Shown: one piece after another, positions 5,564 through 37,599 of the stretch | How positions within the stretch are numbered: the first letter of the stretch is position 1 | How the letters are laid out: each line of letters opens with the position of its first letter | From: Candidatus Iainarchaeum sp. | GTDB taxonomy: Archaea; Iainarchaeota; Iainarchaeia; Iainarchaeales; JAZDDZ01 | Assembly (NCBI GenBank): GCA_043809245.1 | Contig: JAZDDZ010000049.1 | Span: 1 to 64,000 of the forward strand | DNA: 64,000 nt | Direction of reading: 5' to 3' | Program-made: the position numbers and the translations under genes | Notes under the pieces: generated by a model | The model's database searches: none | The model's input: only the letters and a program-made list of their open reading frames with translations | Told to the model about the DNA's origin: nothing

Positions 5564-5569
5564 ATTATA

Positions 5570-16297: not shown

Positions 16298-16298
16298 A

Positions 16299-19382: not shown

Positions 19383-19460
19383 GAGAAAAGAAAGGGATTA
19401 ATTGAATAAAAAACTATCCTGAAGTGCCATCAGAAAAATAGGTGTGTTTTTTGCAAAGCA

Positions 19461-19814: not shown

Positions 19815-19853
19815 AGCAAATTAAATGGAAAAAAGGGGATAAAAAGGCTTTTG

Positions 19854-20075: not shown

Positions 20076-20132
20076 GAAAAAATCAAGCGCAAACCAATAT
20101 TTATTGCTTTTGCCACAGGCATATCTTATATT

Positions 20133-20732
20133 ATGCCTGAACGCGGAAACCCTGTTCACGGGATAAAAATGGTTCCATTAACCACCCTAGAGAAAAAAGG
20201 CGAGCTAAAAATTTCTTTTGAAATTGCGAAAGGCAGCAGGCCAAGCAATTCTTTCCTGACAAGCCCCTGGCTTTCGGGCTTGATTGAAAAAACATGCCTT
20301 GCAGAGGGAACAAAAGTCGGCTTCGTAGAATTGAAAAACACTGGCTACAAGCTTTATTCCTTGGACATCCACCCTTTCGTTTACGCACCCGAGGAAGCGC
20401 AGGACCTTTTAATGGGTAAAAGGTTCGGTGAAAAACTCAGCGAAATGGCTTTGGTTGAGGCAAGAAAAAGATTGGGAGAAGTTAAAATCAGCCCCTACCA
20501 CGCGGGAACCTCGGGGCCAATGCAAAAGCTTCTCAAAAGATGGGGTGTAAAAGTCAGGCCAAGCGGTTCATTTGAAGCGGGCATCACAGGCATGATTGAA
20601 GGCGCAAGAAAATCGTTAAACGAATTCAAAAGCAAGCGCAGCCAAATTCAAAAAATGGCCAACGCACTAACCAATTTAAAGCAAAAAAAAGCAGGCTTTT
20701 CTTACGTGAAAAGAAAAGCGCCGAGAAAGTAG
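20133..20732 (+). CDS. Basic hypothetical protein
   Basis: Start reassigned to MPERGN; followed by hairpin CCCAAGCC-GTA-GGCTTGGG and a T run (20741-20766). Confidence 0.65.
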   Translation: MPERGNPVHGIKMVPLTTLEKKGELKISFEIAKGSRPSNSFLTSPWLSGLIEKTCLAEGTKVGFVELKNTGYKLYSLDIHPFVYAPEEAQDLLMGKRFGEKLSEMALVEARKRLGEVKISPYHAGTSGPMQKLLKRWGVKVRPSGSFEAGITGMIEGARKSLNEFKSKRSQIQKMANALTNLKQKKAGFSYVKRKAPRK

Positions 20733-20789
20733 CTACATTTCCCAAGCCGTAGGCTTGGGCTTTTTTGATAAACCTTTTTTTAAAAAGGT

Positions 20790-20883
20790 TTGGACCCAGC
20801 GGGAATTGAACCCGGTCATTTTCGGTAGTTTGTAGGCAGTTCACGGGTTCGGTTTTTTGAGATGTTTTAGTTATTTTATTCAT
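20790..20883 (-). CDS. Integrase N-terminal fragment (intN) ending in the att repeat
   Basis: GGAGGT RBS, then MNKITKTSQKTEPVNCLQTTEND-RVQFPLGP; att is read in the same frame as in intC. Confidence 0.8.
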
Positions 20884-20896
20884 TTTTACCTACCTC

Positions 20897-21727
20897 CTAA
20901 TTTTCTTTTACTTTTTTATTTCCTTCATCATCCCAGCATTTGTCCCTAGTTTTTTCCAGTTCAAAGTGGAGTTCTACTAATGATTTGTTAAATCCAGGTT
21001 TTTTAACAATGAAATCAGCGAAAATTGGTACGAATGCCCCCAAGGTTTTGTCCATCAAGTCTAATGTAAAATATATACAATCAGCAGCCATTTCTTTGTC
21101 GAATGTGTTAGTTCGCAATCCTGTTAAGGAAGGATGAGAGTAACTACCTGAGAGCCCATGGTAAACCGATTCAAAATTCTTGCCTATGTCTACTTCATAG
21201 AGTTCTTTGATTATGTATGAGTGCCAAAATTGTTTTTCCTTTAGCTTCCCGGTTTTCATGAACACATTTATTTCCTCTTTCGAGTATTTGTTTTTTCTTA
21301 ACCATTCTTCAACTTTACCTGGATTTTTTCTTAGGTATTCCATTGTTACAAATACTTCATAAGCAAGCCGCAGATTGTTGTAACAAGCTCCGTAGTGTGC
21401 ATCGCATAACGCACGATATATTGCTAAAAAAAGGTCGGCATTTTTACTTAACAAAAGTTGGCTTGTCTGTAAAAGAAGATTTTCCTTAAATATTTCAATA
21501 TCTAAGCTAGGGAGATGCGTAGCCTGGTAAATATGTGCCAACGCCTTCTTGAACAAAAACGATTCTTTAGGGAAGGTATTTTCAAATGTTGTCTGTTCCG
21601 TCTCTAACCTTCGTAAAATACTTTGGAAATTTTTATTGAAGTTAAGGGGGCTTAGGCCATCCCAGTATGTGGCGAGTAGAACATTAGATTCTTCTTTAGA
21701 GCACTGCTTTGAATTCCCGTTCTTCAT
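20897..21727 (-). CDS. Helical hypothetical protein, possible HEPN-like nuclease
   Basis: LRLAYE...YHGLSGSYSHPS pattern. Confidence 0.5.
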   Translation of the reverse strand: MKNGNSKQCSKEESNVLLATYWDGLSPLNFNKNFQSILRRLETEQTTFENTFPKESFLFKKALAHIYQATHLPSLDIEIFKENLLLQTSQLLLSKNADLFLAIYRALCDAHYGACYNNLRLAYEVFVTMEYLRKNPGKVEEWLRKNKYSKEEINVFMKTGKLKEKQFWHSYIIKELYEVDIGKNFESVYHGLSGSYSHPSLTGLRTNTFDKEMAADCIYFTLDLMDKTLGAFVPIFADFIVKKPGFNKSLVELHFELEKTRDKCWDDEGNKKVKEN

Positions 21728-21731
21728 CTTG

Positions 21732-22475
21732 TTACCTTCTCTTTTTTTCTATCAAATAGTTTACATTAAAATTGATGAATGAGCAGACGTTCTCTTTTGT
21801 TTCTCTGATAAAACTATCTAATGGTTTTCCGTCAATTTGCATCGGTATGCAATCTATTCTTGTTGGCGAGCCAACTTCTTTTTCCATGCAGCTCCAAAAA
21901 GCAGTCGCTTTTACTTCATATTTGTTCATTATGAAGTAATGCACTATGTCAACTCTTTTTTTGTTGAGTCCTTCAACCCAGGTTTGCCATTGTTCAATAT
22001 AATATTTCTTAAGTTCTGGTTCTTGTTTTTCGAGCCTTTCAGATATAGCATTATATTTCTCAGTGTTCTCAATTAGTGCCTTCATTAGTTTTTGTAATGA
22101 TTCAACCTCATCGCCAAGTAATACTTCCAATGAAAGTTTTATCTGATATCGAACAGCTCTAATGCAAGTTTCAATAAAAGAATCAAACGAAAAAGCGAAG
22201 TCGGTGAATACTCTCACATGGCCTGAATGTACTACTTTGTGTTGTACTGCGGTGCTAAACTTAAAATCGTCTTTATTTTTTTGTAATCTACGCATCATGT
22301 CGTTAATTGCATTTTCTTTAATCTTTTCAAAAACAAAGTTATGGGTTGCTAAGCATTGCTTTTCCAAAAATTTTGTTTTTTCCAGCAGAAAATTAATGTC
22401 ATCTACTTTATAGGAATATTCCTGCGTGCCTAACCTTGCCTTTAGTTCGGGGAAAAAGATTGTTTCTTCTGTCAT
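21732..22475 (-). CDS. Probable HEPN-domain protein
   Basis: Helical protein with R-x4-H motif (RVDIVH). Confidence 0.55.
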   Translation of the reverse strand: MTEETIFFPELKARLGTQEYSYKVDDINFLLEKTKFLEKQCLATHNFVFEKIKENAINDMMRRLQKNKDDFKFSTAVQHKVVHSGHVRVFTDFAFSFDSFIETCIRAVRYQIKLSLEVLLGDEVESLQKLMKALIENTEKYNAISERLEKQEPELKKYYIEQWQTWVEGLNKKRVDIVHYFIMNKYEVKATAFWSCMEKEVGSPTRIDCIPMQIDGKPLDSFIRETKENVCSFINFNVNYLIEKKRR

Positions 22476-23065
22476 CCTTTGCTCACCACTGCTTTGATAT
22501 GGATTCCAACAACGTCTCTTAATTTGAAATAAGTATTTACTTCCATTGCTTTCCTGAGCAGTGCCTTAATTTTCTTGAACTTTTTTTCATCATCTTCTTC
22601 GTGCACACCAAGCGGATAACTTTCCATAATAAGCTGGTAAAACATGTTCCTTATGGTCTTCTGTACTAAAACTTCATGCCTTTTTGTATAGTGTCTAATA
22701 TATGCTTCGAATTCTTCGGCTTCTTTGTCTGAAAATTCTTCCATCAGCAGTTTCCATTTTCCCCATATCTTAATATAGCGAAATTCCTCAAACAAAAAGT
22801 GCGAAAAGTATACTGCAAGTCGGCTATAGTCTATATAGTAGCGATTTTCTTTTTGCCCCGGCACTTTTTCAATGCTTACAATGCCACGACTTTCAAGATT
22901 GTTCATTTTTCTTAGAATATTTTTCCTTTCAACAGTTTTTTTACTTTTTAACAAATCCGAAGTTGTAATTTGTTTTTTCTCGAGGACTGTTTTAAACAGG
23001 ATTGCGTATTCTGGGTTGTCATTCAGATTTGGCCTTGTCATATCTTCCCACTTATAATAAGACAA
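22472..23065 (-). CDS. wHTH transcriptional regulator (repressor-like)
   Basis: TTSDLLK...NILRKMNNLESRGIV...RYYI. Confidence 0.7.
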   Translation of the reverse strand: MSYYKWEDMTRPNLNDNPEYAILFKTVLEKKQITTSDLLKSKKTVERKNILRKMNNLESRGIVSIEKVPGQKENRYYIDYSRLAVYFSHFLFEEFRYIKIWGKWKLLMEEFSDKEAEEFEAYIRHYTKRHEVLVQKTIRNMFYQLIMESYPLGVHEEDDEKKFKKIKALLRKAMEVNTYFKLRDVVGIHIKAVVSKG

Positions 23066-23110
23066 AGTGAGAACCTATTAAAAAAGGTATCCTTTGATTC
23101 ATACTTTTCT

Positions 23111-23239
23111 ATGGACATAACAACAATAAAGATTCATAGAGAGACCTTGGGACTTCTAAAAGAACATAAACCTGTCGGGTGCAGTTATGACTATTTTTTG
23201 AAGCAGTTGCTGCGTCTTTGTGAAAAGAAAGGTGATTAG
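23111..23239 (+). CDS. Small RHH/antitoxin-like DNA-binding protein (42 aa)
   Basis: TTIKIHRET...LK...SYD..LKQLL. Confidence 0.65.
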   Translation: MDITTIKIHRETLGLLKEHKPVGCSYDYFLKQLLRLCEKKGD

Positions 23240-23398
23240 GTGCTCATTCAAGACCATGAAAAGACTTCATTCAAATGTTGTCGCTGTGGCAAAAAAGCAG
23301 TCTTGGACTTTGACCTGAATTTCTATTGCAAGTGCTGTGTTCTGCAATTGCTTTCCGCTATTATCCACGACTTGCAGAGGCTGGAGCATGAAAAATGA
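23240..23398 (+). CDS. Small zinc-finger protein (52 aa)
   Basis: Hand translation ...CCRCGKKA...FYCKCC...; GGTGA RBS; stop overlaps the next start. Confidence 0.6.
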   Translation: MLIQDHEKTSFKCCRCGKKAVLDFDLNFYCKCCVLQLLSAIIHDLQRLEHEK

Positions 23399-24251
23399 TA
23401 CATTTTTGCCCGAACAAAAAAGCCGAACAGCCCCAATACGCAGAGCAGACTTGCGAGTCCTTTTTACTATCAGAAAGGGAATAAATTCGGTAACGATGAT
23501 TTCAAAGGAGATTGGGCGAGGCAAGTCTTCCGTGTCTGAACGGCTGGGAAAGCTTGTTAAGCAGGAGCTCGTAAAAAAGAAAGATTCGCTCTTTTACCTT
23601 ACTACACCCGGCAAAATGGCTTGTTCGGCTTTGGCAGGACTACCTTGCAATAAACCTATTGTTTTCCGTTTGCATAAGTATACTTCCTCTGCTCCTTTTT
23701 TGAGGAAGTCTGCTGAATTGGAGGCACAGTTAGCTTCAGATAAGCGATTCTCAAGGAATTATTGTTTTGATAGAGCTAAGTTTAATGCAAAGTACGATTC
23801 TGTTACCGTTCAGTTTCATCCAAATTCTGTTAGCTTTGTATTGCCCCCTGTTTATTCCCCTGATTTAATTATCGCTGAAGCTTATGCTGTTAGGTTGTTG
23901 AATGCGGTTATTGATTTGCTTGAGCAGGATTTTCCCGGGACTAAGATTGGAGTTCCTAAGGTAACTTCACATCTTGATGATAACCATATTGCTGTTGTTA
24001 ATCATCCTCTTTCTATTGAATTTGCCAAGTTTCGTGAGAATTTTGGTGAGACATACTGCTTCAAAGGGGATAAAATCGAAGTTGATTTTTCCGATGGCTC
24101 TGTTGAATTGGAGTGTGTTGACAAGCTCAATGCGAAGGAGGATTGCTATAAATTGGCAAGATTTTGTAATCTTCTAGTAACTGGGGATAATTTCAAGAAG
24201 TTTGAGGCATTGCTCCAGAACCTTGATTCTTTTGGTAATATTGAGAAGTAA
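23388..24251 (+). CDS. wHTH protein with uncharacterised C-terminal domain (candidate replication protein)
   Basis: N-terminal wHTH (SKEIGRGKSSVSERLGKL); RLH, HIA and DFSDGSVELE motifs; replication role is inference from position. Confidence 0.55.
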   Translation: MKNDTFLPEQKSRTAPIRRADLRVLFTIRKGINSVTMISKEIGRGKSSVSERLGKLVKQELVKKKDSLFYLTTPGKMACSALAGLPCNKPIVFRLHKYTSSAPFLRKSAELEAQLASDKRFSRNYCFDRAKFNAKYDSVTVQFHPNSVSFVLPPVYSPDLIIAEAYAVRLLNAVIDLLEQDFPGTKIGVPKVTSHLDDNHIAVVNHPLSIEFAKFRENFGETYCFKGDKIEVDFSDGSVELECVDKLNAKEDCYKLARFCNLLVTGDNFKKFEALLQNLDSFGNIEK

Positions 24252-24260
24252 TAGGTAACA

Positions 24261-25811
24261 GTGATTTTCGTGGACTGGACTCCTGAGCGAATTGACAAAT
24301 TCTCGGAGCTGTTGGCCGAGGGCAAGGATTTGAGTTACGTTGCTGATTATTTTGGCGTAAGTTATGTTGCTGCAAAGCAAGCCAAGTACTTCCATAGCTT
24401 GAAGGATAGGTTAAAGCCTGGAAGAAAGAATGTCAAATTGAAACAGGCCAAGGAGCTTAATAAGTGTGATTTGGCTACTCGAATTCGCGTGCTCCGTGGC
24501 GAGGAAGTGCGAAAAGAAGAGGCGGTTTTTGGTTTTTCAGATGACCAGTTAAAGGAATGGTTTGACGGAGCAAGTGGAGTAGCTAAATTCTGTCAGGACG
24601 TTCTTGGATTAGAATTGCAGCCTTATCAGCTTGAAATGATTGAATTAATGCTTTCCCATAAGCGTTGTTGTTTTGTTCTTGGAAGGCAGTCGGGGAAGGA
24701 TTTCACTATTTCGTGTTTTGTTTTGTGGTTGGCTTTAGTGCATTCCAATCAAAGAATTTTATTGGTTTCCGCGGCTCAAAGGCAGAGCGATTTGTTGTTT
24801 AACCGAATAATGCAGTTTATTGCCAATTCAACCGAGTTGTTTGACTCCGTGCAAAAATCAAACATGGAAGTAATCCAGTTCACTAATGCATCAGAGGTTT
24901 ATTCTCTTCCAAGCACTACCTTTATTCGCGGTTTTACAGAGGTAACCCATGTTTTTCTCAACGAAGCAGCTCATGGAATCACAGAGGAAGCGCTTCAGGC
25001 CGTTGAACCAATGCTTGCAATCAAGCACGGCGCGCTGATAATGATGAGCTCTCCTTTGGGCACTTCTGGCGTGCTCTGGGATGCCTTCAATAACCCAATG
25101 TACGCAAAATTAAAGCTCCCCAGCTCCGTTAACAAGTATATTTCTAAAGAATGGCTTGAAGAGCAAAGAAAAACCATGTCATCAATTGCCTACGAATGCG
25201 AAATAGAGGCTAATTTCTCCCAAGCAATCGACTCTTTCTTTAAAATTGAAACAATCAAAGCTTGCTCTCAAGAGTACGCACTACGAAGCACTTGCCCAAA
25301 AGAAGACGGCAAAAACTATTTCGCCGGCATTGACTGGGGTCGAATACAAGATTCAAGCGCTATAACCATTATTTCTAAATACCAAGAAGACCAGTTAAAA
25401 GTTGAAGCAATAATTGAAATGTTCAACACTCCGTTTAAAGCCCAAGAAGAAAGAATCAAATCACTCTACAAAGAATGGGGCTTGGAAAGAATAGTATCCG
25501 AATACGCCGGTTTAAGCATTAATTCCTGTGAAAACCTAAAAACTGCTGGCCTAAGTGTAGAATTCTTCAAACCCACAATTGATTCCAAAGCCGAAGCCTA
25601 CAATTACTTACTCAACAAAATGGAAAACGGGGCAATAACAATCCCCCTGCACGACAAACTCCAATACGAGTTAAGAGTATTCAAATTCCAGTTAACCATG
25701 CAAGGAAAAATGAAACTCCACCACACAGAAGGCGGGTCAGACGACTTCGTAGACTCCTTATGCTATGCTGTTTGGGCAACTAAATCAAAATTTATTTGTG
25801 CACTGGTGTGA
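24261..25811 (+). CDS. Terminase large subunit-like protein with N-terminal HTH
   Basis: LQPYQ, GRQSGKD, VFLNEAA, MSSP, AGIDWGRIQD, SDDFVDSLCYA. Confidence 0.9.
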   Translation: MIFVDWTPERIDKFSELLAEGKDLSYVADYFGVSYVAAKQAKYFHSLKDRLKPGRKNVKLKQAKELNKCDLATRIRVLRGEEVRKEEAVFGFSDDQLKEWFDGASGVAKFCQDVLGLELQPYQLEMIELMLSHKRCCFVLGRQSGKDFTISCFVLWLALVHSNQRILLVSAAQRQSDLLFNRIMQFIANSTELFDSVQKSNMEVIQFTNASEVYSLPSTTFIRGFTEVTHVFLNEAAHGITEEALQAVEPMLAIKHGALIMMSSPLGTSGVLWDAFNNPMYAKLKLPSSVNKYISKEWLEEQRKTMSSIAYECEIEANFSQAIDSFFKIETIKACSQEYALRSTCPKEDGKNYFAGIDWGRIQDSSAITIISKYQEDQLKVEAIIEMFNTPFKAQEERIKSLYKEWGLERIVSEYAGLSINSCENLKTAGLSVEFFKPTIDSKAEAYNYLLNKMENGAITIPLHDKLQYELRVFKFQLTMQGKMKLHHTEGGSDDFVDSLCYAVWATKSKFICALV

Positions 25812-25814
25812 GGA

Positions 25815-26165
25815 ATGCAAGATTTCAAGCGATTAGAAGTTTGGAAGAGGGCCCATAATTTTGTTTTGGATATTTATAAAGCCACTGAATTTTTTCCAAA
25901 AAGCGAAAAATTTGGCATGATTTCACAAATTAGGCGAGCCTCTGCTTCAATTGTTGCAAACATTTGTGAAGGCTGCGGCCGGGAAAGCAAAAGAGAATTT
26001 CAGAGATTTCTTTTCATTTCACTTGGATCTGCAAAAGAAACAGAAGGATTTCTACTATTAGCTGAAGATTTAGGTTATTGCAAAGAAAAAAGGTTGATTG
26101 AAGAATTACAAATTATAAGCAGAATGCTTAGCGGACTCATTAAGAGTCTTAACCAAAACAGTTAA
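25815..26165 (+). CDS. Four-helix-bundle protein (S23 IVP/bAvd-like)
   Basis: LEVWKRA...FPKSEKFGMISQIRRAS.SI.ANI.EG..R. Confidence 0.9.
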   Translation: MQDFKRLEVWKRAHNFVLDIYKATEFFPKSEKFGMISQIRRASASIVANICEGCGRESKREFQRFLFISLGSAKETEGFLLLAEDLGYCKEKRLIEELQIISRMLSGLIKSLNQNS

Positions 26166-26255
26166 AGAAAATTGCACGCGATTGAAATGAGCGGGGATCC
26201 TTCTTGTTAAGCCAGTAGAAGGCCGCTTATTAAAAACGTCTAAAAAGATGCCAGT

Positions 26256-28856
26256 TCATTTATAGCCTAACTTTTTCTTTACCTTTGCTAAATTACCCCA
26301 ATATGAAAAGCAGGCGGATACTAACGAACCAAAACCATTTTTGATTAATTTTTTAGCAGTTAATCTTCCCTTGATTTCTTTACTTGCTTTTTTAAATTCT
26401 TTCTTTACGTTCGCCCATTTTTTCCAATAATTGGCCTCTTTATGTAACACTCCTTTTTTACCAAATCGGCCATATTTCAAACCACACATTTTTGCAACAA
26501 CCCCAAAACCACCAAACTTCAATATTGCGGACTCTAAATCTTGCTGTCCAGATTTTCTTAATTCCCTGGATGTCGGCATAATCCTGGCTTTTGCAATTTT
26601 TTTTATTTCCTTAATTAGTTCCTTCTTTGTCCAAATTCTCCGTACTATTGGGCAACCTATTATCCTTCTTGCCTCATTAACGCTGCCAAAAAACCGATAG
26701 ATCTTTGGGTAGAGTCCGCTTTTACCTGACTTCCTTGCTTCTTCTTGTGTTATAAAATGGCCTTGCTTGTCGTAAAACGCCTTTAATTCTGCGACAACTT
26801 CTTCCTTTGCCCAATGCTTTCTTATAATTGGATAACCCATTTTTTCTCGTACTGTATTAATGCTGCCATAATGTTTTACTGCATGAGCGTATAACTTATA
26901 TTTGCCTAATTTTTTGAACTCAGTTTCTTTTGGAAAATGTTTTATTTCCTTTATAATTTTATTGAAATCTCTCTCAATATTTTCCCAAATAGCATAACTA
27001 CCTCTCTTTGTGTAATATGTGATGGGATAACCGCACTTATCTGAAAAATAAAATGGCCCTCCATTTCTATCAATAGCAACTATAAGGTCAAACCGTTTAG
27101 CTTCTTCCAAGTGCTTTCTTGATGGGAAACGCCCTAACCTTTTACAAATCGGGGTTAGCCCCTCAATTATCTCCTGCTCTGTCCACCCATCAGATTTTAT
27201 TAAGTGCTTTTTCAGGAATGCCATTTCTTCAAGGAATGATTTTTTCTTATACAATTTTTCGTTGTGTTTTACTCTCTTACCCGCTTGATAGAAATCTAAT
27301 TCCAATGGCTCAAGTAAACCAGTTTCTTTATGTATTTTACCTTTATGAATGTTGGATAGTTTTTTTTCTTTCTCGACCTTTTCAACAAAGTCTTGAATTA
27401 TTAATAGGTGCCCGAATGCATTAATTACTTTTTTAATCTTGGTTACAGTTCCAACGAAATCTAAAACCCGCAAATAATTTTTTCCAGAAGCTTTTCTTAA
27501 TCCCCGACCCAATTGCTGGAAAAAAATTGTGGGGCTATAAGTTGTCCGTAAGAAAACAACCAAGTTGGCACCAGGAATGTCAATGCCTTCATTGAATAAA
27601 TCGACCACTAAAATTGTTCTTATTTTTCCCGTTTTAAACCTGTGAAAAATTATCTCTCGTTTTTGATCATCCATATTGGAATGATAAACTTCCGCGTCTG
27701 AAAACAAACCAATTGATTTAACGGAGTTAATATACTTTATTGTTGGGCAAAAAACAATTGTTTTTGGGTTATCAATTTTGTTCATCTCCCCGTAAATTAT
27801 TTTTTCAATATCTTCGTCTTTTGTGGGAATAAAAAATTGTTTATTCAACTGCTCCACGGAAAGCTTTTTGTTTATCGTTTTGAGTTTAGCATAGTCGATG
27901 TTGTCAGAAAAAACAGAAAATTTTACAGGAGACAAATAACCTCTAATTAATGATTCAGCTAAACCCAAATCAACTAATGGTTTTCCGAAAATACTTTCAA
28001 TGAATTCATTGTCTTTTCGTGCAGCTCTAAGCGGAGTTGCAGTAATTCCGAGAATAAATTTCGGCTTGAAATAGGATAATATGTTAGCATAAGTTTGCGC
28101 AGGAGAATGGTGTGCTTCATCGATTATGATATAATCAAAATAATCTTTCGAGATTTTTTTGTAATGTCTTTTCATTGTCTGGAATGTTGAGAAAACAATA
28201 TCCTCTTTCCGGAACTTTTTTCCCCCAAAATAAACGCCGAATTTGAACTTTCCTTTTTTCTCATTTAGTATGAAGTTAAATTTTTCAGCATTATCAACAA
28301 GAATGTCAGTTCGGTGAACCAAAAACAAGGCCTTTTGTCCTTTCTTAATTTGGCTTTTTAAATCCCAGGCCGCAACCAATGTTTTACCTAAACCTGTTGC
28401 CAAAACCAATAATGCTGCTTTGTTGCCTTTTTCTCTGTGTTCAATAAGGCAGTTTAAAATCTTTTGTTGATATGGAAACGGCCTATACTTTACAGATTTG
28501 GATTTAAATTTTTTCCATTCTTTTAATTCTTCCAAGCCGATTAAATCGATAGGTTTATCGAATTTATTTTTTGCCTTGTAAACGGCTTTGGAAAAAACAG
28601 TGTCACAGACCAACATTCCTCTATCTGCTTTATAAAAATCCATTGCAGCTGAAACATCCTTTAACGCGCTATATCCCACAGTTCCTTTGTATTTTTTGCA
28701 TTGAACAACATATTCTAAACCATCCTTTAAAGCTAAAATATCGGCACCATAATCGCTTGAAGCCTTTGTAACCTTAACGTGGTAAAAGCCCTGAGCCTTC
28801 AGCTTCTCAGCTACATACTTTTCGAAATCAAAACCAGCCTTCTGTGCTGTCGTCAT
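26256..28856 (-). CDS. Mrr-type endonuclease, SF2 helicase and five C-terminal helical repeats
   Basis: DYGADI...QCK; TGLGKT, DEAHH, TATP, QQLGRGLR; repeats W..e.i....k.......P...........GG/GS. Confidence 0.88.
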   Translation of the reverse strand: MTTAQKAGFDFEKYVAEKLKAQGFYHVKVTKASSDYGADILALKDGLEYVVQCKKYKGTVGYSALKDVSAAMDFYKADRGMLVCDTVFSKAVYKAKNKFDKPIDLIGLEELKEWKKFKSKSVKYRPFPYQQKILNCLIEHREKGNKAALLVLATGLGKTLVAAWDLKSQIKKGQKALFLVHRTDILVDNAEKFNFILNEKKGKFKFGVYFGGKKFRKEDIVFSTFQTMKRHYKKISKDYFDYIIIDEAHHSPAQTYANILSYFKPKFILGITATPLRAARKDNEFIESIFGKPLVDLGLAESLIRGYLSPVKFSVFSDNIDYAKLKTINKKLSVEQLNKQFFIPTKDEDIEKIIYGEMNKIDNPKTIVFCPTIKYINSVKSIGLFSDAEVYHSNMDDQKREIIFHRFKTGKIRTILVVDLFNEGIDIPGANLVVFLRTTYSPTIFFQQLGRGLRKASGKNYLRVLDFVGTVTKIKKVINAFGHLLIIQDFVEKVEKEKKLSNIHKGKIHKETGLLEPLELDFYQAGKRVKHNEKLYKKKSFLEEMAFLKKHLIKSDGWTEQEIIEGLTPICKRLGRFPSRKHLEEAKRFDLIVAIDRNGGPFYFSDKCGYPITYYTKRGSYAIWENIERDFNKIIKEIKHFPKETEFKKLGKYKLYAHAVKHYGSINTVREKMGYPIIRKHWAKEEVVAELKAFYDKQGHFITQEEARKSGKSGLYPKIYRFFGSVNEARRIIGCPIVRRIWTKKELIKEIKKIAKARIMPTSRELRKSGQQDLESAILKFGGFGVVAKMCGLKYGRFGKKGVLHKEANYWKKWANVKKEFKKASKEIKGRLTAKKLIKNGFGSLVSACFSYWGNLAKVKKKLGYK

Positions 28857-29011
28857 CTTAAAGCAAATTTCATCAAAAACGAGTTTAAAATGATTTGTTA
28901 TTGACTGTTCTCCCGCCTTAAAAAAGCCTAAATACGAGCCTCAATTCATAGATGGCAAAGAGCGGAAAGATAATTAAATTCAACAAAAAGCAGCAGCATT
29001 ATTATTTTTGT

Positions 29012-29776
29012 TTAATTTTGCCTGCTGCCTAAATTTTTTCTAAGGCTATCTTCTATTATTTTTTTAGAAACGCGTTTTCTCATCTCAACAGTCAGGCGTT
29101 CCGAGTCGACGCCATTATCACTCATGAACTCCAAAATGCCCTTGGAAGTAAATTCCCCATATTTATTAATGAGCTCTGACTCGGAGATACCTTGAGCACA
29201 TTCAATCAATTTACTTTCTTTTAATCTGCCTAAAAAACCAACAAGGACTTTGCTTGAATTCATATATTGGTTTATAGGAATAAGCTGATCCCAGAAAAAT
29301 AAGGCGGAAAATTTTTTATCGCTAAAATATTCTTCATCAAGACCTTTCAATGCAGTACACCATCTGCTTTTTTTAAAATCTGGTTCGCATGGCGTAAGTG
29401 GCCACGCTTTACATAACAAAGGCCGGTATTTATAGATTCCACACTTATTATTTGACAAAGCAGGACATGGCTGACCTAAAAGCTTCCAAAGTTGAACAAT
29501 TCTTGTTTTACTTTTTAAGTCAAAAAGGTATACTTCTGGGATTAATTCGGCTTTAATGGAATTTTCGTTTAATCCTTTTTTTACGGTTTCTCTTTCAAAA
29601 TCAGTCAGTATAGTGCCAGGCTTAATGGCTGGCGGCATATAAACTGGGCCATACTGAAATTTTTTTATTTTTTCATCATCTTCTTGTTCGGTTTTCAAAA
29701 TATCTTCGTTGCAACAGCGCCCGCATTTTACACAGGAAAATCGCGCTAAATTCTTGGCCATATAAAATACTCGCAA
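29012..29776 (-). CDS. YkgJ-family cysteine cluster protein
   Basis: CVKCGRCC...CPAL...CGIYKYRPLLCKAWP. Confidence 0.85.
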   Translation of the reverse strand: MRVFYMAKNLARFSCVKCGRCCNEDILKTEQEDDEKIKKFQYGPVYMPPAIKPGTILTDFERETVKKGLNENSIKAELIPEVYLFDLKSKTRIVQLWKLLGQPCPALSNNKCGIYKYRPLLCKAWPLTPCEPDFKKSRWCTALKGLDEEYFSDKKFSALFFWDQLIPINQYMNSSKVLVGFLGRLKESKLIECAQGISESELINKYGEFTSKGILEFMSDNGVDSERLTVEMRKRVSKKIIEDSLRKNLGSRQN

Positions 29777-29813
29777 GAAAAAGGTTAAAATCTGTTGTAC
29801 AATTAATTCACAG

Positions 29814-30890
29814 TTATCTTAATGTGACTGTTTTGCTTGTTGAAGCCACTGCTTGAATTGCTACGCCAGATTTTAAATTAACCTTCAAAGTATACGTTCC
29901 GGGCGAGATTTCTGTTTTGTTATCATACCCAATATAAGTTGCCTTGTAAATTCCATCATAACCTACTGGAATTTCAGATAAAGCATAGCTTTGTTCATCC
30001 ACATCTCTGCTCAGTACTTGGTCGCCTTCATATATATAAAAATCAAACATAGGATTTTGAAGAATGGCTTCTCCGTTATTTTTTATTCCAATCTTTACGT
30101 AATCTAAAAAGCATTCATTGTTGTAACATGTCGGGTTATAATCTACTATGCTCAATTCTATCTGGAATCCTTCTTTTACCAATTCTAAGGCTTTTTCTTC
30201 TTTTGGAATATCCATCTCTAAGTAGCTCTGCCTTTCCAAAATATCATATTCGAACTTAGAGTTGATTTGCTTAATATCCTCTTCAGAAAAACCTTTAAGG
30301 CGCTCAAGTTCTTGTTTATCCAAATTTATAATTTGCTGATACAATTCTATAAATTTTTCTTCATCATTTTCTACTGCGGTTTTTTCAACCAACGCGTTTC
30401 TATTTACATTCCATTCTCTTCTATCGCGCCTATACTTAACATAGGTTTTCTCTAAATTAACATCAAAGCTACCTTCTAATTCCGAAACAGCTCTTTCCAT
30501 CTGCTCAATCTTAGTCAGTATGAAATCATAGTCAATTAAAGCGCTCTCTTTATCGTATTCCGCAGATTCTGCGTCTAAAAACTTTATAATATCCTTGTAC
30601 TGCTTGGTTTCCTCCAACTTCTGCTTAGCACAAGTATTTACTTTTTGTCCTCCTGATTCTAATTCTTTACAATCAAAAAATTGCGGGCATGCAACATCCA
30701 AACAACAATTTTCGGCAATCTCCCCGGGCTCTGCAATTCCATTACCGCAAATAGCGTTCGCGCTTAGGTCTGATGAAGGCAAACTATTATCGCTGTTAGA
30801 CAATGCAGCCGGCGAGCCTACATCTTGTGTGCACCCGCTGAGAATCAACAATAAAATAAATGCCGGAACAACTAATTTCAGGCCAAGCAT
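29814..30890 (-). CDS. Secreted lipoprotein-like protein
   Basis: LSGC lipobox; CGNGIAEPGE..ENCCLD cysteine-rich motif. Confidence 0.8.
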   Translation of the reverse strand: MLGLKLVVPAFILLLILSGCTQDVGSPAALSNSDNSLPSSDLSANAICGNGIAEPGEIAENCCLDVACPQFFDCKELESGGQKVNTCAKQKLEETKQYKDIIKFLDAESAEYDKESALIDYDFILTKIEQMERAVSELEGSFDVNLEKTYVKYRRDRREWNVNRNALVEKTAVENDEEKFIELYQQIINLDKQELERLKGFSEEDIKQINSKFEYDILERQSYLEMDIPKEEKALELVKEGFQIELSIVDYNPTCYNNECFLDYVKIGIKNNGEAILQNPMFDFYIYEGDQVLSRDVDEQSYALSEIPVGYDGIYKATYIGYDNKTEISPGTYTLKVNLKSGVAIQAVASTSKTVTLR

Positions 30891-30977
30891 AATAGCAAGT
30901 TATTGCTACGAAAATCATATAAATATGTTATGAGCGTGTTATGATAGTATTTGAATGGGCCTGCAGCCTCTATTTTA

Positions 30978-31223
30978 ATGTACGAAGAAATAGCTGGCCT
31001 CAAACGGAGCAAGACAAAAATAGACATTCTCAAAAGGCTTGCATCAAAGCCCATGACGCCAACGGAGCTATCAAAAGAGCTTAAGCTCCACCAGTCAAGC
31101 ATCTCACGGAGCATTAAACAGCTTGAACAGCAAAAACTAGTGGAATGCTTAACGCCAAAACAATACAACTATAGGCATTATCAGGCAACAGAGAAAGGAA
31201 AAAAAATTCTGAAACAAATTTAA
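30978..31223 (+). CDS. ArsR/MarR-like wHTH regulator
   Basis: PMTPTELSKEL...SSISRSIKQL...Y.ATEKGK. Confidence 0.85.
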   Translation: MYEEIAGLKRSKTKIDILKRLASKPMTPTELSKELKLHQSSISRSIKQLEQQKLVECLTPKQYNYRHYQATEKGKKILKQI

Positions 31224-31227
31224 TTTG

Positions 31228-32856
31228 TTATCCTTTTAATCTTTCTCCACAAGAAGTGCAGAAATTTACTGTTGCTTTTTGTTGCGAGTTACATTTCGGG
31301 CAAATTATAGCGTTAACATTTGTTGGCGCTTGTTGTGGTTTCAAATAAAAGAAATAAGCTGCTACTCCCACTAATCCGACTATAATTAAAACAATAATAA
31401 TCGGCAATGCGGAAGATAGCGAGTTCTCAGAGCTTAGAACCGCCGATCCAGTATTAGGCAGTGCTGAAGCTTCAGATCCTTCAGCAATAACTTTTACCGG
31501 TTCACAGCTATCCTTGCATTGACCCACATAACTTCCTTCTGCTTTACAGCATTCTTGCCCAGATGCACAATCTTGTGCTTTATAATTTCTGCCTTCAGAG
31601 CAACAACTGCTATAAGGACAATCCTGCAAGGTATAACGTGCCTTACAGCCTTCAGTTCTATTGCAAACCTCGTTAGGCCCACATTCTGAATCTGAACAAC
31701 ATAACACTTTATTTGTTGATTTAGTACATGAGCCATTTTTACTGGGCCAAATTTTATGAGTTAAATCACAACTCCAGATTGTTTCAGTATTATTTAGACA
31801 TGTCACTTGTCCTGGAACTTGACAATCTATATCTGTGTCACAAGGTTTTGAATCAGTACATGAAAAAGTATTTGGATCGCATAATAATGCTCCTGTGGGG
31901 TCTTTCCACTTACAATCTTCATTATAACAGCATTCAACAACACTTTTGACGCTTGTGGGAATTAAATAGCACGCCCCCGACACAGTATCTATTTTAGAAA
32001 AGGACATCAAATTCCTATTCCCTGGAGAGCCGCCCATACAATAGCCATTTGGCATATTATCTTTATCATAAATAATTCCTATATCCGGTATTATTTTCCA
32101 GCCAGATAAAAAGGTATAAGTTTCACCAGCATGTAAATTTGTTGGATTATTCGCGAATGAATATGAAATCTGATTTATTGATTTATACTGGCCACTTAGA
32201 CTTTTTGTAGTGGTAGAAGTCTCAAAATAAGTAGTAGGTAAATTTTCTGAAACTGCTTTTTGCGGATAATATTTTGAAACAAAATCGGTTGGGACACAAC
32301 CCACAGTACCTGGCATCATAACGAAATTTGTAGTATTGTCTGGATTTTCATACAAATAGATTTTTCTGGTATCAACTTTTATTTTAGATCCTGATCTGAG
32401 TGGGTGTTCATCTCCCAGAACTCCAATGCAAGTTCCGACTATTTTCAAAGTTTTCGGGTATCCAAAGGTTATTGGGAAGCCGCCAATCTGTTTTTCCTTT
32501 AAATCTTTGTAGTATCTTCTCCATACAATATTATCTCCGTCTAAAATTCTTAAGTCAAGCCGCCATAAAAAATCTTCACAAAATTTATTATTGGGATCAT
32601 TCAAAGAACGACCTTCTGGATCTGTTATTGATGAGCGGTCTGATATATTGCATTGTGACACGCAAGGAAGGTCCACTACAGATGAAGTTGCACCAGTTTG
32701 AATTTCATATTCTGGATAGTCGTATTGTTCAGTATTCGCAGAATCACACAATACCACCCCGAAGACTGGTGCAGCGATTGAACAGTGCTCATTCTCTGCT
32801 AAAACTAAAAAATTGAATATCAAAATAAAAATAAGCAAAATCAATAATTTTTTCAT
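31228..32856 (-). CDS. Cysteine-rich surface protein with C-terminal TM and zinc ribbon
   Basis: Signal peptide, CC..D..C repeats, transmembrane segment, CPKC...FCTSCG. Confidence 0.8.
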   Translation of the reverse strand: MKKLLILLIFILIFNFLVLAENEHCSIAAPVFGVVLCDSANTEQYDYPEYEIQTGATSSVVDLPCVSQCNISDRSSITDPEGRSLNDPNNKFCEDFLWRLDLRILDGDNIVWRRYYKDLKEKQIGGFPITFGYPKTLKIVGTCIGVLGDEHPLRSGSKIKVDTRKIYLYENPDNTTNFVMMPGTVGCVPTDFVSKYYPQKAVSENLPTTYFETSTTTKSLSGQYKSINQISYSFANNPTNLHAGETYTFLSGWKIIPDIGIIYDKDNMPNGYCMGGSPGNRNLMSFSKIDTVSGACYLIPTSVKSVVECCYNEDCKWKDPTGALLCDPNTFSCTDSKPCDTDIDCQVPGQVTCLNNTETIWSCDLTHKIWPSKNGSCTKSTNKVLCCSDSECGPNEVCNRTEGCKARYTLQDCPYSSCCSEGRNYKAQDCASGQECCKAEGSYVGQCKDSCEPVKVIAEGSEASALPNTGSAVLSSENSLSSALPIIIVLIIVGLVGVAAYFFYLKPQQAPTNVNAIICPKCNSQQKATVNFCTSCGERLKG

Positions 32857-33367
32857 ATTTTTTCCCCGCATTTCTCGCAGAATTTTGAATTCTGGCTATT
32901 TTTTGCTCCGCATGCTCTACAAAATATTGCTTTTTCATTTGGTTGAGTAGCCTGAATTTGTTGGCTTGGTTTTGAATCAGCTTTAATCATAAACAAGCCA
33001 ATAACAAATAGAATCGCAAATACTATTGTTGCAATGAGTGAAACGTCTGTGAAAAATTTTATTAAAGTTAAAACGTTTTTTAAAGAAGCCGAGCTGTCTT
33101 TAACCATGGCCATAATTCGCCAATACTGCCGCCCCATCCCGCGGCCTCTCCAATCACTGGAACCCAGTTAAGGCCTTTAACTGTTTGCAAAAAAGAAGTA
33201 GCAGAAGTATACCAATCCGAATGCGATATTGAATAGATTTGCTCATTAGCCTGGTACGCGCTGTTAATAGTTCCGGAGAGAGGAGTTAGATAAATAAAGA
33301 AGGTTAAGAAAATGATTAACATGGCTAAGGAAAAGCCCGCTAAGAACGCCCCACCCACTTTTCCCAT
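32853..33367 (-). pseudogene. Membrane protein with zinc ribbon, apparently split by a 1-nt frameshift
   Basis: Overlapping ORFs 33080-33367 and 32853-33137 join as ...GGSIGE-IMAMVKD... if one A is restored near 33115. Confidence 0.55.
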
Positions 33368-33457
33368 AGTACTATTTTTGGCCTTGAAATGCCTTTAAAA
33401 TCTATCGTAATGGCAAAATGGCTTTAGTTGAAAAAGGCTTTGTTTGAGTACTATTTA

Positions 33458-34087
33458 ATGGATAACAACTATCAGAACCGAACGCGGGTCAATGATATTC
33501 AAGCTAGAATAAGTCACGAGATATACTTAGAGGTAAGTGAAAAAATTAAAGAAGGAGATATTTCTAAAGCAAAAGAACTTTTTTTAGAAAATTTTAGACT
33601 AATTATCCATGAGATAAGTCAATTTGGCGGTATTAAAGAAAGAAAGCATTTATTTGGAAGAGTAGCTCAAGGAATTAATTTTTTAAAGGACACGTATTTT
33701 TTTGACATTAAATATGGAGAAATTAATGATGCAAAGAAAGAATTATTTACAATATTTAATGAACATTTGGTAGTGGTAATTGCGCTAATATTAAAAGATG
33801 AGGAAGATTTTGGGGCAATAGAATATATTGACAGAATGATTCACCCATTATTTTATATTGAAAAGAGAGATGCTCCAGATTATGCGGGCTTTACTGTATC
33901 CCGAGTTGATGAAAAATATTTTTTCGATGTTTTCAGATTTCGTTTTAAAAATGCGTCAAAAGATTATGACGAACTAAAGTTTGAAATTGAAAAATACAAA
34001 AACTGGGTTGAAGAAAAAAACAAAAAGTTTGCTGATTTACTTAAAAATCGTGGTATAAATGCCGAGTATAAAAAAGCGAAAGAATAA
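33458..34087 (+). CDS. Hypothetical protein
   Basis: Long AT-rich ORF. Confidence 0.65.
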   Translation: MDNNYQNRTRVNDIQARISHEIYLEVSEKIKEGDISKAKELFLENFRLIIHEISQFGGIKERKHLFGRVAQGINFLKDTYFFDIKYGEINDAKKELFTIFNEHLVVVIALILKDEEDFGAIEYIDRMIHPLFYIEKRDAPDYAGFTVSRVDEKYFFDVFRFRFKNASKDYDELKFEIEKYKNWVEEKNKKFADLLKNRGINAEYKKAKE

Positions 34088-34706
34088 ACAAAGGTATCTA
34101 GAGCTAAAAAAGCTTGACGATTATTTAGCCTCTTGGATAGAACAAAAAAATAAAGAATTCAGAGAGTTCACAGACCAGAACGTAGCGTTGATGCGAGAAG
34201 AAAACATTCGCTTAAGAAAAGATGCTGCAGAAGTTTACCAAAAAGCTGAAAAGAAACTTGACGAACAGCAAATAAGACTAGTAGAAGTATTGGGAATATT
34301 TACTGCAATACTTGCTTTTGTTATAACATTTGTCCAAATCTCTGTAAGTTTTTCGGCTATAGAAGCATTTGGCTTAATTATTGCCATTGGCATCATCTTG
34401 ATAATATTTATATTTTTGTTAAAGAAAATAATAGAACCTAAAGCGCAAAATGAGAAAATGATTAGTATCCCGAAAGAAAAAAAATTCGATTGGCCCCGAG
34501 AAATAAGGCGCATTTTAAATCCTTTTCTTACAGTATTTATTTCTATATCTATATCGATTTTGGTTTATTCAGAAGTAATAATAAGAAATGAAATAGATGC
34601 TAACTTTTGGATTTTACTTTTTTTCGGTACTTTAGCAATTTTTATTTTAATTAATTCTCCGATTTTCTATTTAATATCTTGGCAAAACAAAGGGCTACTC
34701 AAATGA
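34059..34706 (+). CDS. Coiled-coil membrane protein
   Basis: VEVLGIFTAILAF and three further transmembrane segments. Confidence 0.65.
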   Translation: MPSIKKRKNKQRYLELKKLDDYLASWIEQKNKEFREFTDQNVALMREENIRLRKDAAEVYQKAEKKLDEQQIRLVEVLGIFTAILAFVITFVQISVSFSAIEAFGLIIAIGIILIIFIFLLKKIIEPKAQNEKMISIPKEKKFDWPREIRRILNPFLTVFISISISILVYSEVIIRNEIDANFWILLFFGTLAIFILINSPIFYLISWQNKGLLK

Positions 34707-34712
34707 ACTGAT

Positions 34713-35864
34713 CTAAGTTGGAGTTTGAGGAGTTTTTTTATTAATGGCTTCATACAATTTGCTAAACTTTTTTTCTTGCCAGTCATAAAATATTTTTCCG
34801 AAAACACGCACCAGAATAGCGTGTAAAATTATACCTATAAAAAAAGCAAGGGCAAAAGCAAAAATTAATTGCATAGAAAGTAATATCTGAACCGCCATTG
34901 AATTAGCATAAATGCTAGGCAGGTTCTGCACAATGGCGTTTATGGAATACTGTATTAATAAAATATAGAATATTACAAGAAACAAAATTGTGGAAATTGC
35001 CCACACAATCCAGGAAGTCCAGTGCCTTTGAAAATGAATAAGCGGGACCATTCTTTCTAAAGGCCAAAATTTTTCATTAGGAATATTTTTGATTATTTTT
35101 ACTTCTTCAATAGCGTTTAGCTGGTTTTTTAAAGCTGCTTTAATTATCTCCTTGTCATCTTTCCAATCTGCAAGTATTTTTTTCATAGTTTCAAGATTTA
35201 TTAGGTTTGGGAAATAGGAAATAAGTCGAATAGTATCTTTCTTACTTAACTTTAGTTTATATAATTCATCTATTGCATCCGGGTTTAATTCTTGTTGAGT
35301 AAGCAGAGAATCAATTAGCACGGGGCTGTTCCAACTATTTTTAACTAATAGAGATATTGTTTTAGTTAGCTCTATACCAATAATATTGTAACTATCTATT
35401 TCTTGTATTATACTTGTTTGGGCCTCTTTTTTTATTTCCGCAAAAATTTTTTCCTTCCTTAATTTCCTAGCTATTGCGCCCCAATTCTCAATTGCTATAT
35501 CGATGACCGTTAAAACTGCAAGCACTGCAACAATAATAACAAAAATAGTATTCTGTAGGTCTCCGCTTTTCCAAAGCACCATTAAAAAGGCAATTGCTAA
35601 AATACTTTTCCAAGCAGTATCCGAAATTTTCAAAAAACGTGTCAAGACTGATCGTAGTAATTCAGTAATTGTTTCTAAAAAATCGAAAAATTTTGTGATT
35701 GGTCGATTATCCTCGGGTCTTCTGAAAATTCTGCTGCCGATATCAACACTAACGTCAGGCAACGTAAATAAGTCATTAGGCATTAATCTTGTAGGTATTT
35801 TCTCTTTTCCCATAGCTATATATCGCATAATAATCTTTTTATAGTGCAAAGATAGCTGCTTCAC
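34713..35864 (-). CDS. Membrane protein (4 TM)
   Basis: Two transmembrane pairs flanking a soluble helical region; start uncertain. Confidence 0.65.
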   Translation of the reverse strand: MKQLSLHYKKIIMRYIAMGKEKIPTRLMPNDLFTLPDVSVDIGSRIFRRPEDNRPITKFFDFLETITELLRSVLTRFLKISDTAWKSILAIAFLMVLWKSGDLQNTIFVIIVAVLAVLTVIDIAIENWGAIARKLRKEKIFAEIKKEAQTSIIQEIDSYNIIGIELTKTISLLVKNSWNSPVLIDSLLTQQELNPDAIDELYKLKLSKKDTIRLISYFPNLINLETMKKILADWKDDKEIIKAALKNQLNAIEEVKIIKNIPNEKFWPLERMVPLIHFQRHWTSWIVWAISTILFLVIFYILLIQYSINAIVQNLPSIYANSMAVQILLSMQLIFAFALAFFIGIILHAILVRVFGKIFYDWQEKKFSKLYEAINKKTPQTPT

Positions 35865-36751
35865 ATCTTCTCAATCAACTCCTTTGCAATCGATTCATAC
35901 GATTCTGAGTTGAAGACCTTGTTAACCAACTCGAGCTGCTCTTGGTGTGAGAAGAAAATGTATTGGTCAGTTGTGTCTTCTTTTTTGTGCCTGGCCAGAA
36001 CTTTGACTAATTCTTTTTGCTTGCAGAATTGATATAGCCTTGTCAGATAGGTTCGCCTAAAGGAGTGAGTTGATAGCTTGAATAGCTTCTTTTTGCATGG
36101 GTTTTCGTGGCTTGGAGTGAAAGCCTCTGCGTAAATGTTTGTTAGGCCGGCTTTCTGCCTGCATTTGCCGAAAAAGTTTCTCAAGTGGTCGACTGAGATT
36201 CTTTCTCTTTTCTGGAATGGATTCAACGAAAAGAAAAGAAAGCCATTGGCCTGCTTTATCTCTTCTTTATAGCGCTCCGCATACATTTGAATGCACTCTA
36301 ATGCTATTTGAGGCATTGGTTGGTCGGATGGCAGTTCTGCTTTCTCTGTGAGAAGAGAGATTACGCCTCTTTCAAAGTCACAGTCTTGCAGCCTTATTTT
36401 CACTACTTCTCCGACTCTGAAGCCGCCTGTGAGCATTAAGAACATTGCAAGGCCTTGCTTTGCTCTTTTAGCGGGAATCGCTGAAAACAGTTTCATTAAG
36501 TCAAGGTCAGAGAATACTCTGTAGACGTTTCTGCTTTTAGGCGAAGAACGCTTTTTAATAGACGGAAATTTTTCCTTTAACACTTCGCCAGTTATTTTTC
36601 GCAGCATTTTCAAATCAGATGCTGCAAGCTGTGTCAGGAATTCGCTCCATTGTTTTTCGAAGCCAACAATCGACCTTGGCTTCCTTCTGCTAACCGAAAA
36701 CCGATTGCCTGCTTCCAGACCCGAAATTGGACCCAGCGGGAATTGAACCCG
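35861..36751 (-). CDS. Tyrosine integrase, C-terminal part (intC)
   Basis: GFRVGE, TEK, HSFRR, ARH and TTDQY catalytic motifs; frame begins within att. Confidence 0.92.
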   Translation of the reverse strand, partial: RVQFPLGPISGLEAGNRFSVSRRKPRSIVGFEKQWSEFLTQLAASDLKMLRKITGEVLKEKFPSIKKRSSPKSRNVYRVFSDLDLMKLFSAIPAKRAKQGLAMFLMLTGGFRVGEVVKIRLQDCDFERGVISLLTEKAELPSDQPMPQIALECIQMYAERYKEEIKQANGFLFFSLNPFQKRERISVDHLRNFFGKCRQKAGLTNIYAEAFTPSHENPCKKKLFKLSTHSFRRTYLTRLYQFCKQKELVKVLARHKKEDTTDQYIFFSHQEQLELVNKVFNSESYESIAKELIEKM

Positions 36752-36799
36752 CGACCTCATCCTTGCGAAGGATGCGTCCTACCACTAGACTATGGGCCC
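36728..36799 (-). tRNA. tRNA-Ala(CGC)
   Basis: Cloverleaf GGGCCCA...TGGGTCCA with G3:U70; anticodon arm CATCC-TTCGCAA-GGATG. Confidence 0.95.
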
Positions 36800-36863
36800 T
36801 TTTTTTGGCGCTTATTGATTTTTTGATGGCTTAACTGTTAAATATCTTTTCATTGGCTGTATT

Positions 36864-37535: not shown

Positions 37536-37599
37536 GAAATGAATTATTGCCACAATAAATTAATATAATTGTTTACTGTAATAATATCGGGCGCTATTT

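Follow-up and report, generated by a model that had tools for sequence, protein, structure and literature searches.

Passages of a 2021 review of archaeal tyrosine recombinases define the SSV-type or 'suicidal' integrases by an attachment (att) site that lies inside the integrase (int) gene itself, and discuss such self-splitting enzymes as an adaptation of hyperthermophiles (PMC8371274). According to the same passages, the pTN3-like, pT26-2-like and SSV families all carry PF16795, the SSV1-type signature is R...KxxR...Y, and a single origin is proposed for these integrases within one monophyletic superfamily, Superfamily 25_02, which is the SSV-type superfamily. The pT26-2 cluster includes five mesophilic Methanosarcinales members (PMC7253208), and NitEve-E3, a cryptic integrated element of the thaumarchaeon Nitrososphaera, is described as bearing an SSV1-like split integrase (Krupovic et al., 2019, PMC6563490). 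Here we describe a 15.9-kb element found in a 64,000-nucleotide stretch of contig JAZDDZ010000049.1 of Candidatus Iainarchaeum sp. (hereafter the window, meaning the whole stretch), which very probably integrated into tRNA-Ala(CGC) by splitting its own int gene at an att site contained in that gene.

The arrangement resembles that reported in the sources cited above for SSV1/SSV2, pTN3 and pT26-2, in that the att site is located in the int open reading frame (ORF), integration is directed to the 3' part of a tRNA gene and the catalytic part resides in int(C); as in the SSV type, int(N) and int(C) occupy opposite ends of the element and related integrases use different tRNAs. With NitEve-E3, compared by its description only, it has in common that the split integrase belongs to a cryptic integrated element and that the host is not a hyperthermophile. 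Unlike the SSV type, it is found in a small-genome Iainarchaeota host and in an element with a terminase, and its att site measures only 25 bp (31 and 18 bp in relatives), whereas the review passages give 40-50 bp as usual for SSV-type integrases (PMC8371274). What is new is that the split concerns another integrase family and another host group and that the att site is in a leader predicted to be disordered, the strategy itself being already established. No link of SSV-type or suicidal integrases with DPANN archaea was found in the literature, and the passages searched on DPANN proviruses, integrases and tRNAs, including those of PMC11705971, contain no split integrase; Wu et al. (2024, Nat Microbiol), on DPANN viruses and mobile elements, may bear on priority.

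The Attachment Site Within the Integrase Reading Frame

The sequence TTGGACCCAGCGGGAATTGAACCCG occurs as an exact 25-bp repeat at the two ends of the element (Table 1). With up to 3 mismatches allowed, the window contained no third copy (at least two matches were obtained in 0/100 dinucleotide shuffles), and no further copy was found in the 1.48-Mb host assembly, estimated at 91.8% completeness, at up to 2 mismatches. The right-hand repeat consists of the final 24 nt of tRNA-Ala(CGC) plus one nucleotide and spans part of the T stem, the T loop, the 3' acceptor strand and the discriminator; a G3:U70 pair can be read from the sequence of the acceptor stem. The GC content of 1-kb intervals amounts to 0.30-0.41 in 21001-36000, vs 0.39-0.49 outside the element (1-20000 and 37001-64000).

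At the far end, the frame of the N-terminal part (intN) reads on the minus strand MNKITKTSQKTEPVNCLQTTEND, then RVQFPLGP, encoded by the repeat, and then NLFKK... into host DNA, through which it continues in the integrated state as far as 20626. At the tRNA end, the frame that contains the C-terminal part (intC) reads ..MRSRVQFPLGPISGLEAGN.. and on to the stop at 35861, forming a 299-amino acid ORF (35861-36760) whose ATG is located inside the tRNA. The frames joined in silico across one att copy yield 960 nt that encode 319 amino acids (23 + 8 + 288 codons), with a stop only at the end. The initial annotation, made from the letters alone, had claimed that RVQFPLGP is in frame at both ends, that it follows a ribosome-binding site and 23 codons at one of them and opens the catalytic part at the other, and that circularization would rebuild a 319-residue integrase; translation of both 25-bp copies, the GGAGGT and ATG ahead of the 23 codons, the 296-codon tyrosine recombinase frame and the stop-free reconstruction bear out each of these statements, and the att site within the ORF, with its two-ended frame, is thereby confirmed.

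Within intC, in-frame ATG, GTG or TTG codons are found at codon 1 (the ATG inside the tRNA, 36760) and then only at codons 50, 52 and 60, the first of which already sits within the conserved N-terminal helices. On the other side, intN is preceded by an array of three tightly packed ORFs, whose sole Pfam match is that of the first ORF to DUF5677 (3.9e-6). After circularization, int would stand at the end of this array as its final gene and may be co-transcribed with it. The suggestion of a recent integration, based on the perfect repeats, is a weak one, because one of the copies is kept unchanged by belonging to a tRNA, and a 25-bp repeat is too short for dating; an intact intC frame of 296 codons fits a recent event without demonstrating recency.

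Uninterrupted Homologues and a Second Split Integrase

A word-based protein search retrieved 14 proteins at E <= 1e-3, the window's own included. Four of them, P0004, P0006, P0012 and P0013 (327-343 amino acids), are uninterrupted homologues with heads rich in N, T, Q and K, such as that of P0012, MNKTTNQQTTQQKTEP..., to be compared with MNKITKTSQKTEP... in the window. In BLASTP alignments, residues 1-319 of the rebuilt protein pair with 1-322 of P0012, 2-319 with 10-329 of P0004, 5-319 with 7-320 of P0006 and 4-319 with 28-334 of P0013, while the alignments with P0007 and P0008 begin at residues 47 and 49. The initial annotation had considered that homologues starting inside intC, devoid of any intN-like sequence, would speak against a split gene; four uninterrupted homologues instead align from residues 1-5 of the rebuilt integrase.

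Some of these proteins also contain peptides of tRNA type. The 3' end of tRNA-Ser(GCT) in the metagenome locus L010 translates in one frame as SSNLVPCV, and RSNLVPCV and YSNLVPRV occur inside the uninterrupted ORFs of P0012 and P0004, respectively; by this match the uninterrupted proteins would therefore carry a tRNA-coded stretch, as the attP form (the att site of the free element) of such a gene should.

A second split integrase was found in a metagenome-assembled genome from the same order but a different family (contig C13 of G146, identical to locus L002). There, a tRNA-Ser is followed by the in-frame integrase P0005 (286 amino acids, recorded as a site-specific integrase), 55% identical to that of the window, and a 31-bp exact copy of the tRNA-Ser end is located 12.66 kb downstream. 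Directly before this far att copy stands an intN composed of GGAG, ATG and 23 codons, MDEKAIQLEKSEPTNYPLQTSKN, followed by the att-coded VSSNLVLSV. The intN parts of both elements have equal length (23 codons) and a common motif, K[ST]EP.N..LQT. Aside from a caveat on the start of P0005, which is taken up below, the G146 element represents an independent self-split integrase at tRNA-Ser.

A hidden Markov model (HMM) of the N-terminal heads of the four uninterrupted homologues was run against the 2246 stop-to-stop frames of at least 20 amino acids from the window and 16 kb of the G146 contig. It ranked the two predicted intN frames first (G146, E 1.5e-4) and second (window, E 0.26) of all frames; the G146 intN scores partly via the shared Ser-type att, and that of the window was matched through the head itself. 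The proposal that the split strategy operates in a probable DPANN lineage is thus supported on both counts, by the Iainarchaeota affiliation of the host, with P0007 likewise derived from Candidatus Iainarchaeum, and by the four uninterrupted homologues together with the homologous 23-codon intN of the second element.

The Enzyme and Its Relation to SSV-Type Integrases

By domain, catalytic residues and fold, the window integrase belongs to the superfamily of tyrosine recombinases. The intC frame matches the Pfam family Phage_integrase (PF00589) at 1.1e-13 (51.8 bits vs a cut-off of 27.1) and the integrase family phrog_216 at 8.1e-20. The catalytic residues R115, K140, H232xxR235, H258 and Y267, numbered on the 299-amino acid ORF, are all located within intC; in an alignment of 76 sequences R115, E118, K140 and H258 are invariant and H232, R235 and Y267 nearly so. 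An AlphaFold2 (AF2) model of the 299-amino acid frame, built with 76 sequences, reached a predicted local distance difference test score (pLDDT) of 90 and a predicted template modeling score (pTM) of 0.80. In this model residues 1-30 score 48-60, the first helix covers residues 35-43 and only two short helices precede the catalytic domain, so that the residues encoded by att, and by extrapolation the 23-residue head, would belong to a leader predicted to be disordered. The att site occupies codons 24-31 of 319 in this leader, whereas the annotated site of SSV1 follows the PF07935 N-terminal domain, at about codons 64-78 of 335. The top Foldseek matches were IntI4, XerH, XerA, lambda Int, Tn1549 Int and Cre (E 7e-9 to 1e-5), and no Sulfolobus-virus integrase is named among the matches listed.

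The initial annotation had considered the partitioning characteristic of SSV1/pTN3-type integrases, which holds for the strategy, with the att site inside the int ORF and two split parts, and does not extend to the protein family. None of the 14 family members matched PF16795 at E <= 10 (0/14) and all of them matched PF00589 (14/14), while SSV1 Int, used as a control, matched PF16795 at 1.5e-61 and also PF07935. The SSV-type signature R...KxxR...Y is likewise absent, the family having HSFRR, that is, HxxR. Comparison of the family profile with SSV1 Int by hhalign gave a probability of 0.2% (E 0.33, 17 columns), with the limited sensitivity of a single-sequence template, and in a PDB profile search none of the 16 matches at E <= 1 named an archaeal-virus integrase. 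The two types thus differ in their domain and catalytic pattern, PF00589 with R..K..HxxR..H..Y here and PF16795 with R..KxxR..Y in the SSV type, as the latter is characterized in the review passages (PMC8371274).

Archaeal XerA, described there as a chromosomal dimer resolvase with a SAM-like N-terminal domain (PMC8371274), provided the best sequence matches among solved structures (4a8e, 2.5e-9; 5hxy, 3.2e-6), is among the best fold matches and has the canonical catalytic residues in common with the window integrase. Identity with XerA was rejected, as none of the 14 members (0/14) contains a Phage_int_SAM family at E <= 10 and the gene is found at the end of a low-GC element, by a tRNA.

Occurrence of the Arrangement Across the Family

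Searches with the family profile detected relatives in 12/196 genomes of the order at E <= 1e-10 and in 12/215 genomes of the phylum at E <= 1e-25, and an exhaustive search of representatives returned 63 clusters at E <= 1e-30 and 407 at 1e-10. When the surroundings of the integrases were searched for tRNAs with introns allowed, six of the eight phylum places at E <= 1e-45 showed a same-direction tRNA directly upstream and an int frame open into it, the tRNAs being Ala (G000), Ser (G146), Arg (G090), Asp (G018), Gly (G137) and Ser (G077). The target tRNAs Asp (L023 1356-1469), Gly (L025 1237-1424) and Ser (L026 1317-1473) were found only with introns allowed; the default ARAGORN setting missed these intron-bearing tRNAs, and their adjoining integrases therefore look tRNA-less. 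For the tRNA-Ser of G146 (L020/L002 1436-1521) ARAGORN gives the unusual anticodon ACT, a call that may be displaced by one base within the anticodon loop.

The two other places at this threshold are G028, without a tRNA, and G209, with only a reverse-oriented tRNA fragment. The G209 integrase is more distant and its arrangement is unlike that of the window: in locus L039 (G209:C14, oriented positions ~1321-1400) an open int frame passes through a reverse tRNA 3'-end fragment (..VAGGGFEPPTS..), and there is no complete tRNA. Adjacent tRNAs were found in none of the six weaker places (0/6), three of which (L027, L028 and L030) have a same-direction tRNA 430-740 bp upstream that does not abut the gene, and these may represent the classical arrangement or contain an extra gene between tRNA and int. 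Among metagenome loci, L010 resembles the six places above in that its int frame opens into an adjacent tRNA-Ser, and L009 has no tRNA. Peptides of the kind encoded by T arms (GSNP, VRIP, VQFP etc.) occur 17 times in the first 60 amino acids of 159 family proteins (9,540 residues) and 4 times in the remaining 33,633 residues.

Three contigs (G000, G146 and G090) were long enough for a search of the second att copy, and the split was seen in two of these, G000 and G146. No second copy was present within the 7.9 kb of contig remaining in G018, and the contigs of G137 (4.5 kb) and G077 (4.2 kb) are too short for this search.

Genes of the Element and Its Relatives

The coordinates of the features discussed are compiled in Table 1. 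The window terminase is 76% identical to that of the G090 element and 69% to that of the G146 element, and the block formed by the winged helix-turn-helix (wHTH), terminase and Avd-like genes (window 23337-26165; L034 5705-8568; L037 8456-10439) is conserved at 49-76% identity across genera. The three genes recur in the G090, G146 and G018 elements, whose integrases are 32-55% identical and associated with other tRNAs; a conserved cargo block combined with divergent integrases in other tRNAs therefore points to one element family with exchangeable integration modules. Zinc-ribbon proteins and several ORFs without family match complete the gene content, and no capsid or portal family was recognized among the 17 element ORFs with Pfam and phrog. 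Judged by its genes, the element is a terminase-carrying mobile element of a family found in several Iainarchaeota genera, and a candidate provirus, satellite or cryptic element. To the right of tRNA-Ala (window 37600-41841, plus strand), a 1413-amino acid HerA-like ATPase with an intein and a LAGLIDADG domain is encoded.

Table 1. Features of the integrated element and its target in the window.
Feature	Position	Strand	Basis and remarks
Original host trailer of tRNA-Ala	20741..20789	-	T-run and hairpin directly after the far att copy; sequence read
att copy, far end of element	20790..20814		Partial copy of tRNA-Ala 3' end; exact 25-bp repeat
intN	20791..20883	-	ATG 20883; 23 element-specific codons (20883-20815); 8 att codons RVQFPLGP (20814-20791)
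Integrated element	20815..36751		15,937 bp with one att copy; repeats, GC drop, cargo genes
Shine-Dalgarno-like GGAGGT	20892..20897	-	8 nt before intN ATG; overlaps TAG stop of preceding ORF
Three tightly packed ORFs (276, 247 and 197 aa)	20897..23065	-	End 13 nt before intN ATG; ORF table
Winged-helix protein	23337..24251	+	Weak Pfam HTH matches; 67% identity to G090 element
Terminase large subunit	24261..25811	+	phrog_2 2.7e-31; Pfam Terminase_6C 3.5e-5
23S-rRNA-IVP/Avd-like four-helix protein	25815..26165	+	PF05635 1.1e-35; adjoins terminase; common to G146, G018 and G090 elements
866-aa Mrr-type nuclease + SF2/ResIII helicase + HNH/homing-endonuclease-associated repeat, one protein	26256..28856	-	Cargo; Pfam, phrog
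intC	35861..36751	-	8 att codons + 288 codons + stop; whole folded part and all catalytic residues
att copy within intact tRNA-Ala	36727..36751		Exact 25-bp repeat
tRNA-Ala(CGC), complete	36728-36799	-	ARAGORN; same direction as intC, directly upstream of intC

Proposed Mechanism and Alternative Readings

The circular form of the element would contain a 319-codon int gene in which the 23-codon head, behind GGAGGT, leads across the 25-bp att (RVQFPLGP) into the enzyme. Recombination with the identical 25 bp at the tRNA 3' end would restore the tRNA and separate the two parts of int, so that the head (intN), along with its start codon, ribosome-binding site and promoter side, would come to lie 15.9 kb from intC. 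The split would take away a leader predicted to be disordered and the translation signals, and no folded domain. Integrase synthesis would cease after integration, as with the SSV-type 'suicidal' integrases, and excision would require a rebuilt or incoming integrase copy; the shut-off is suggested by the lack of an in-frame start after the tRNA and before codon 50. The circular form, the shut-off and the excision route are thus deduced from the sequence, and the repeats, the frames, the intN of the second element, the uninterrupted homologues, the catalytic residues and the fold are the observations on which they are built.

Several results weigh against self-splitting integration as outlined here. 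No attP junction, circular contig or empty attB (the vacant chromosomal site) was seen in the sequences searched, and the flanks offered no comparable locus, the left-flank protein being detected in 0/30 and the right-flank protein in 2/30 other genomes of the order, the latter at no more than 47% identity. The ATG inside the tRNA opens a 299-amino acid frame in the window, and the G146 integrase has an in-frame TTG immediately ahead of the conserved core, at the recorded start of P0005, from which a nearly complete IntC could be made when the element is integrated; the inactivation of intC is therefore presumptive. In G090 (L034, G090:C88), the 18-bp end of tRNA-Arg(GCG), CAATTCCCGGCGGGGGCA, is duplicated in tandem beside the tRNA (3120-3156) and recurs 8.3 kb downstream (11399-11416), a pattern that may stem from tandem or successive integrations; a HicA-like ORF stands just before the far copy, and a convincing intN is lacking there. 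The putative embedded att sites of the uninterrupted homologues are read at the protein level only. Lastly, the HMM match of the window intN is weak taken alone, and since the heads are of low complexity part of their likeness may be compositional; the weight of this result is in the rank of the frames and their position at an att copy, and not in the E value alone.

Reads from one public run (0.05 share of sampled words) mapped to 18500-38400 as 24 pieces with 0 joints. Most of them (21/24) were only partial, falling mostly in tRNA-like places or below 90% likeness, and a 366-nt piece is identical to 18833-19198; the run speaks neither for nor against attP or attB.

The gene might be split without being suicidal, in which case intC would still be made, either by read-through from the tRNA promoter with use of the tRNA ATG or from another start, the element could excise by itself, and integration would amount to a swap of promoter and start. 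Integration replaced the T-run trailer of the tRNA, which probably acts as its terminator, with intC sequence, and by sequence reading no run of at least 5 T directly follows the tRNA; with the original trailer now at the far end, transcription from the tRNA promoter might run on into intC. The 299-amino acid frame from the ATG at 36760, the presence of all folded parts and catalytic residues in intC and the TTG of G146 are in agreement with this explanation. However, tRNA 3' processing would separate an ATG inside the tRNA from the downstream intC frame, and we hold this reading as a whole to be unlikely.

Alternatively, the split may have occurred as described and the element may by now be a decayed remnant, with the terminase and nuclease-helicase as fixed cargo and int parts that no longer function. 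The lack of a recognized capsid or portal family among the 17 ORFs fits such a fate, as does the failure to find a free form in viral or genome collections: a 38-nt exact stretch of intN had 0 matches in the genome contig collection and 0 in the viral contig collection, and a profile scan of the viral contigs revealed no relative among 578 pattern matches. Yet intN and the 296-codon intC are stop-free, the repeats are exact and the core genes recur in related elements of three other genera, which makes decay an improbable account. A classical arrangement of pNOB8/lambda type, with an integrase that abuts att and is whole when integrated and a 23-codon ORF that is in frame by chance, is highly improbable: gene-caller ORFs do begin at or near the tRNA (the 299-amino acid ORF of the window and P0005, 286 amino acids), the leader is predicted disordered and hence possibly dispensable and G090 is without a clear intN, but the sole in-frame start before codon 50 is the ATG inside the tRNA, no Shine-Dalgarno-like sequence can be read at the usual distance before it, the uninterrupted homologues align with intN, a homologous 23-codon intN stands at the far att of an independent element and both intN frames are the top 2 of 2246 by the head profile.

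Regarding the origin of self-splitting integration in these elements, the balance tips slightly towards the view that it arose a second time, in a clade of canonical HxxR tyrosine recombinases borne by Iainarchaeota elements with a terminase, independently of the PF16795 lineage of SSV, pTN3 and pT26-2. This includes the proposal, to which we give somewhat better than even chances, that an att site placed in a leader modeled as disordered, and not between folded parts, turns integration into a promoter and start-codon switch. A leader open to free recoding would account for the shifts of close relatives between tRNA-Ala, Ser, Arg, Asp and Gly, read in differing frames.

Implications

For genome annotation, these observations indicate that gene callers start such integrases in or just after the tRNA and overlook intN. 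The element offers a simpler version of the self-splitting design for study, as the split would remove no more than an unstructured head of 23 residues plus the translation signals, and opens two questions to test, namely whether the split is indeed 'suicidal' and whether an att site in a disordered leader eases the switching of tRNA targets. If true, a second and independent origin would contradict the published single-event origin of suicidal integrases within one monophyletic superfamily. The occurrence of the split in a different integrase family and in a small-genome DPANN host, along with the second element and the uninterrupted homologues, suggests that this design can evolve repeatedly.

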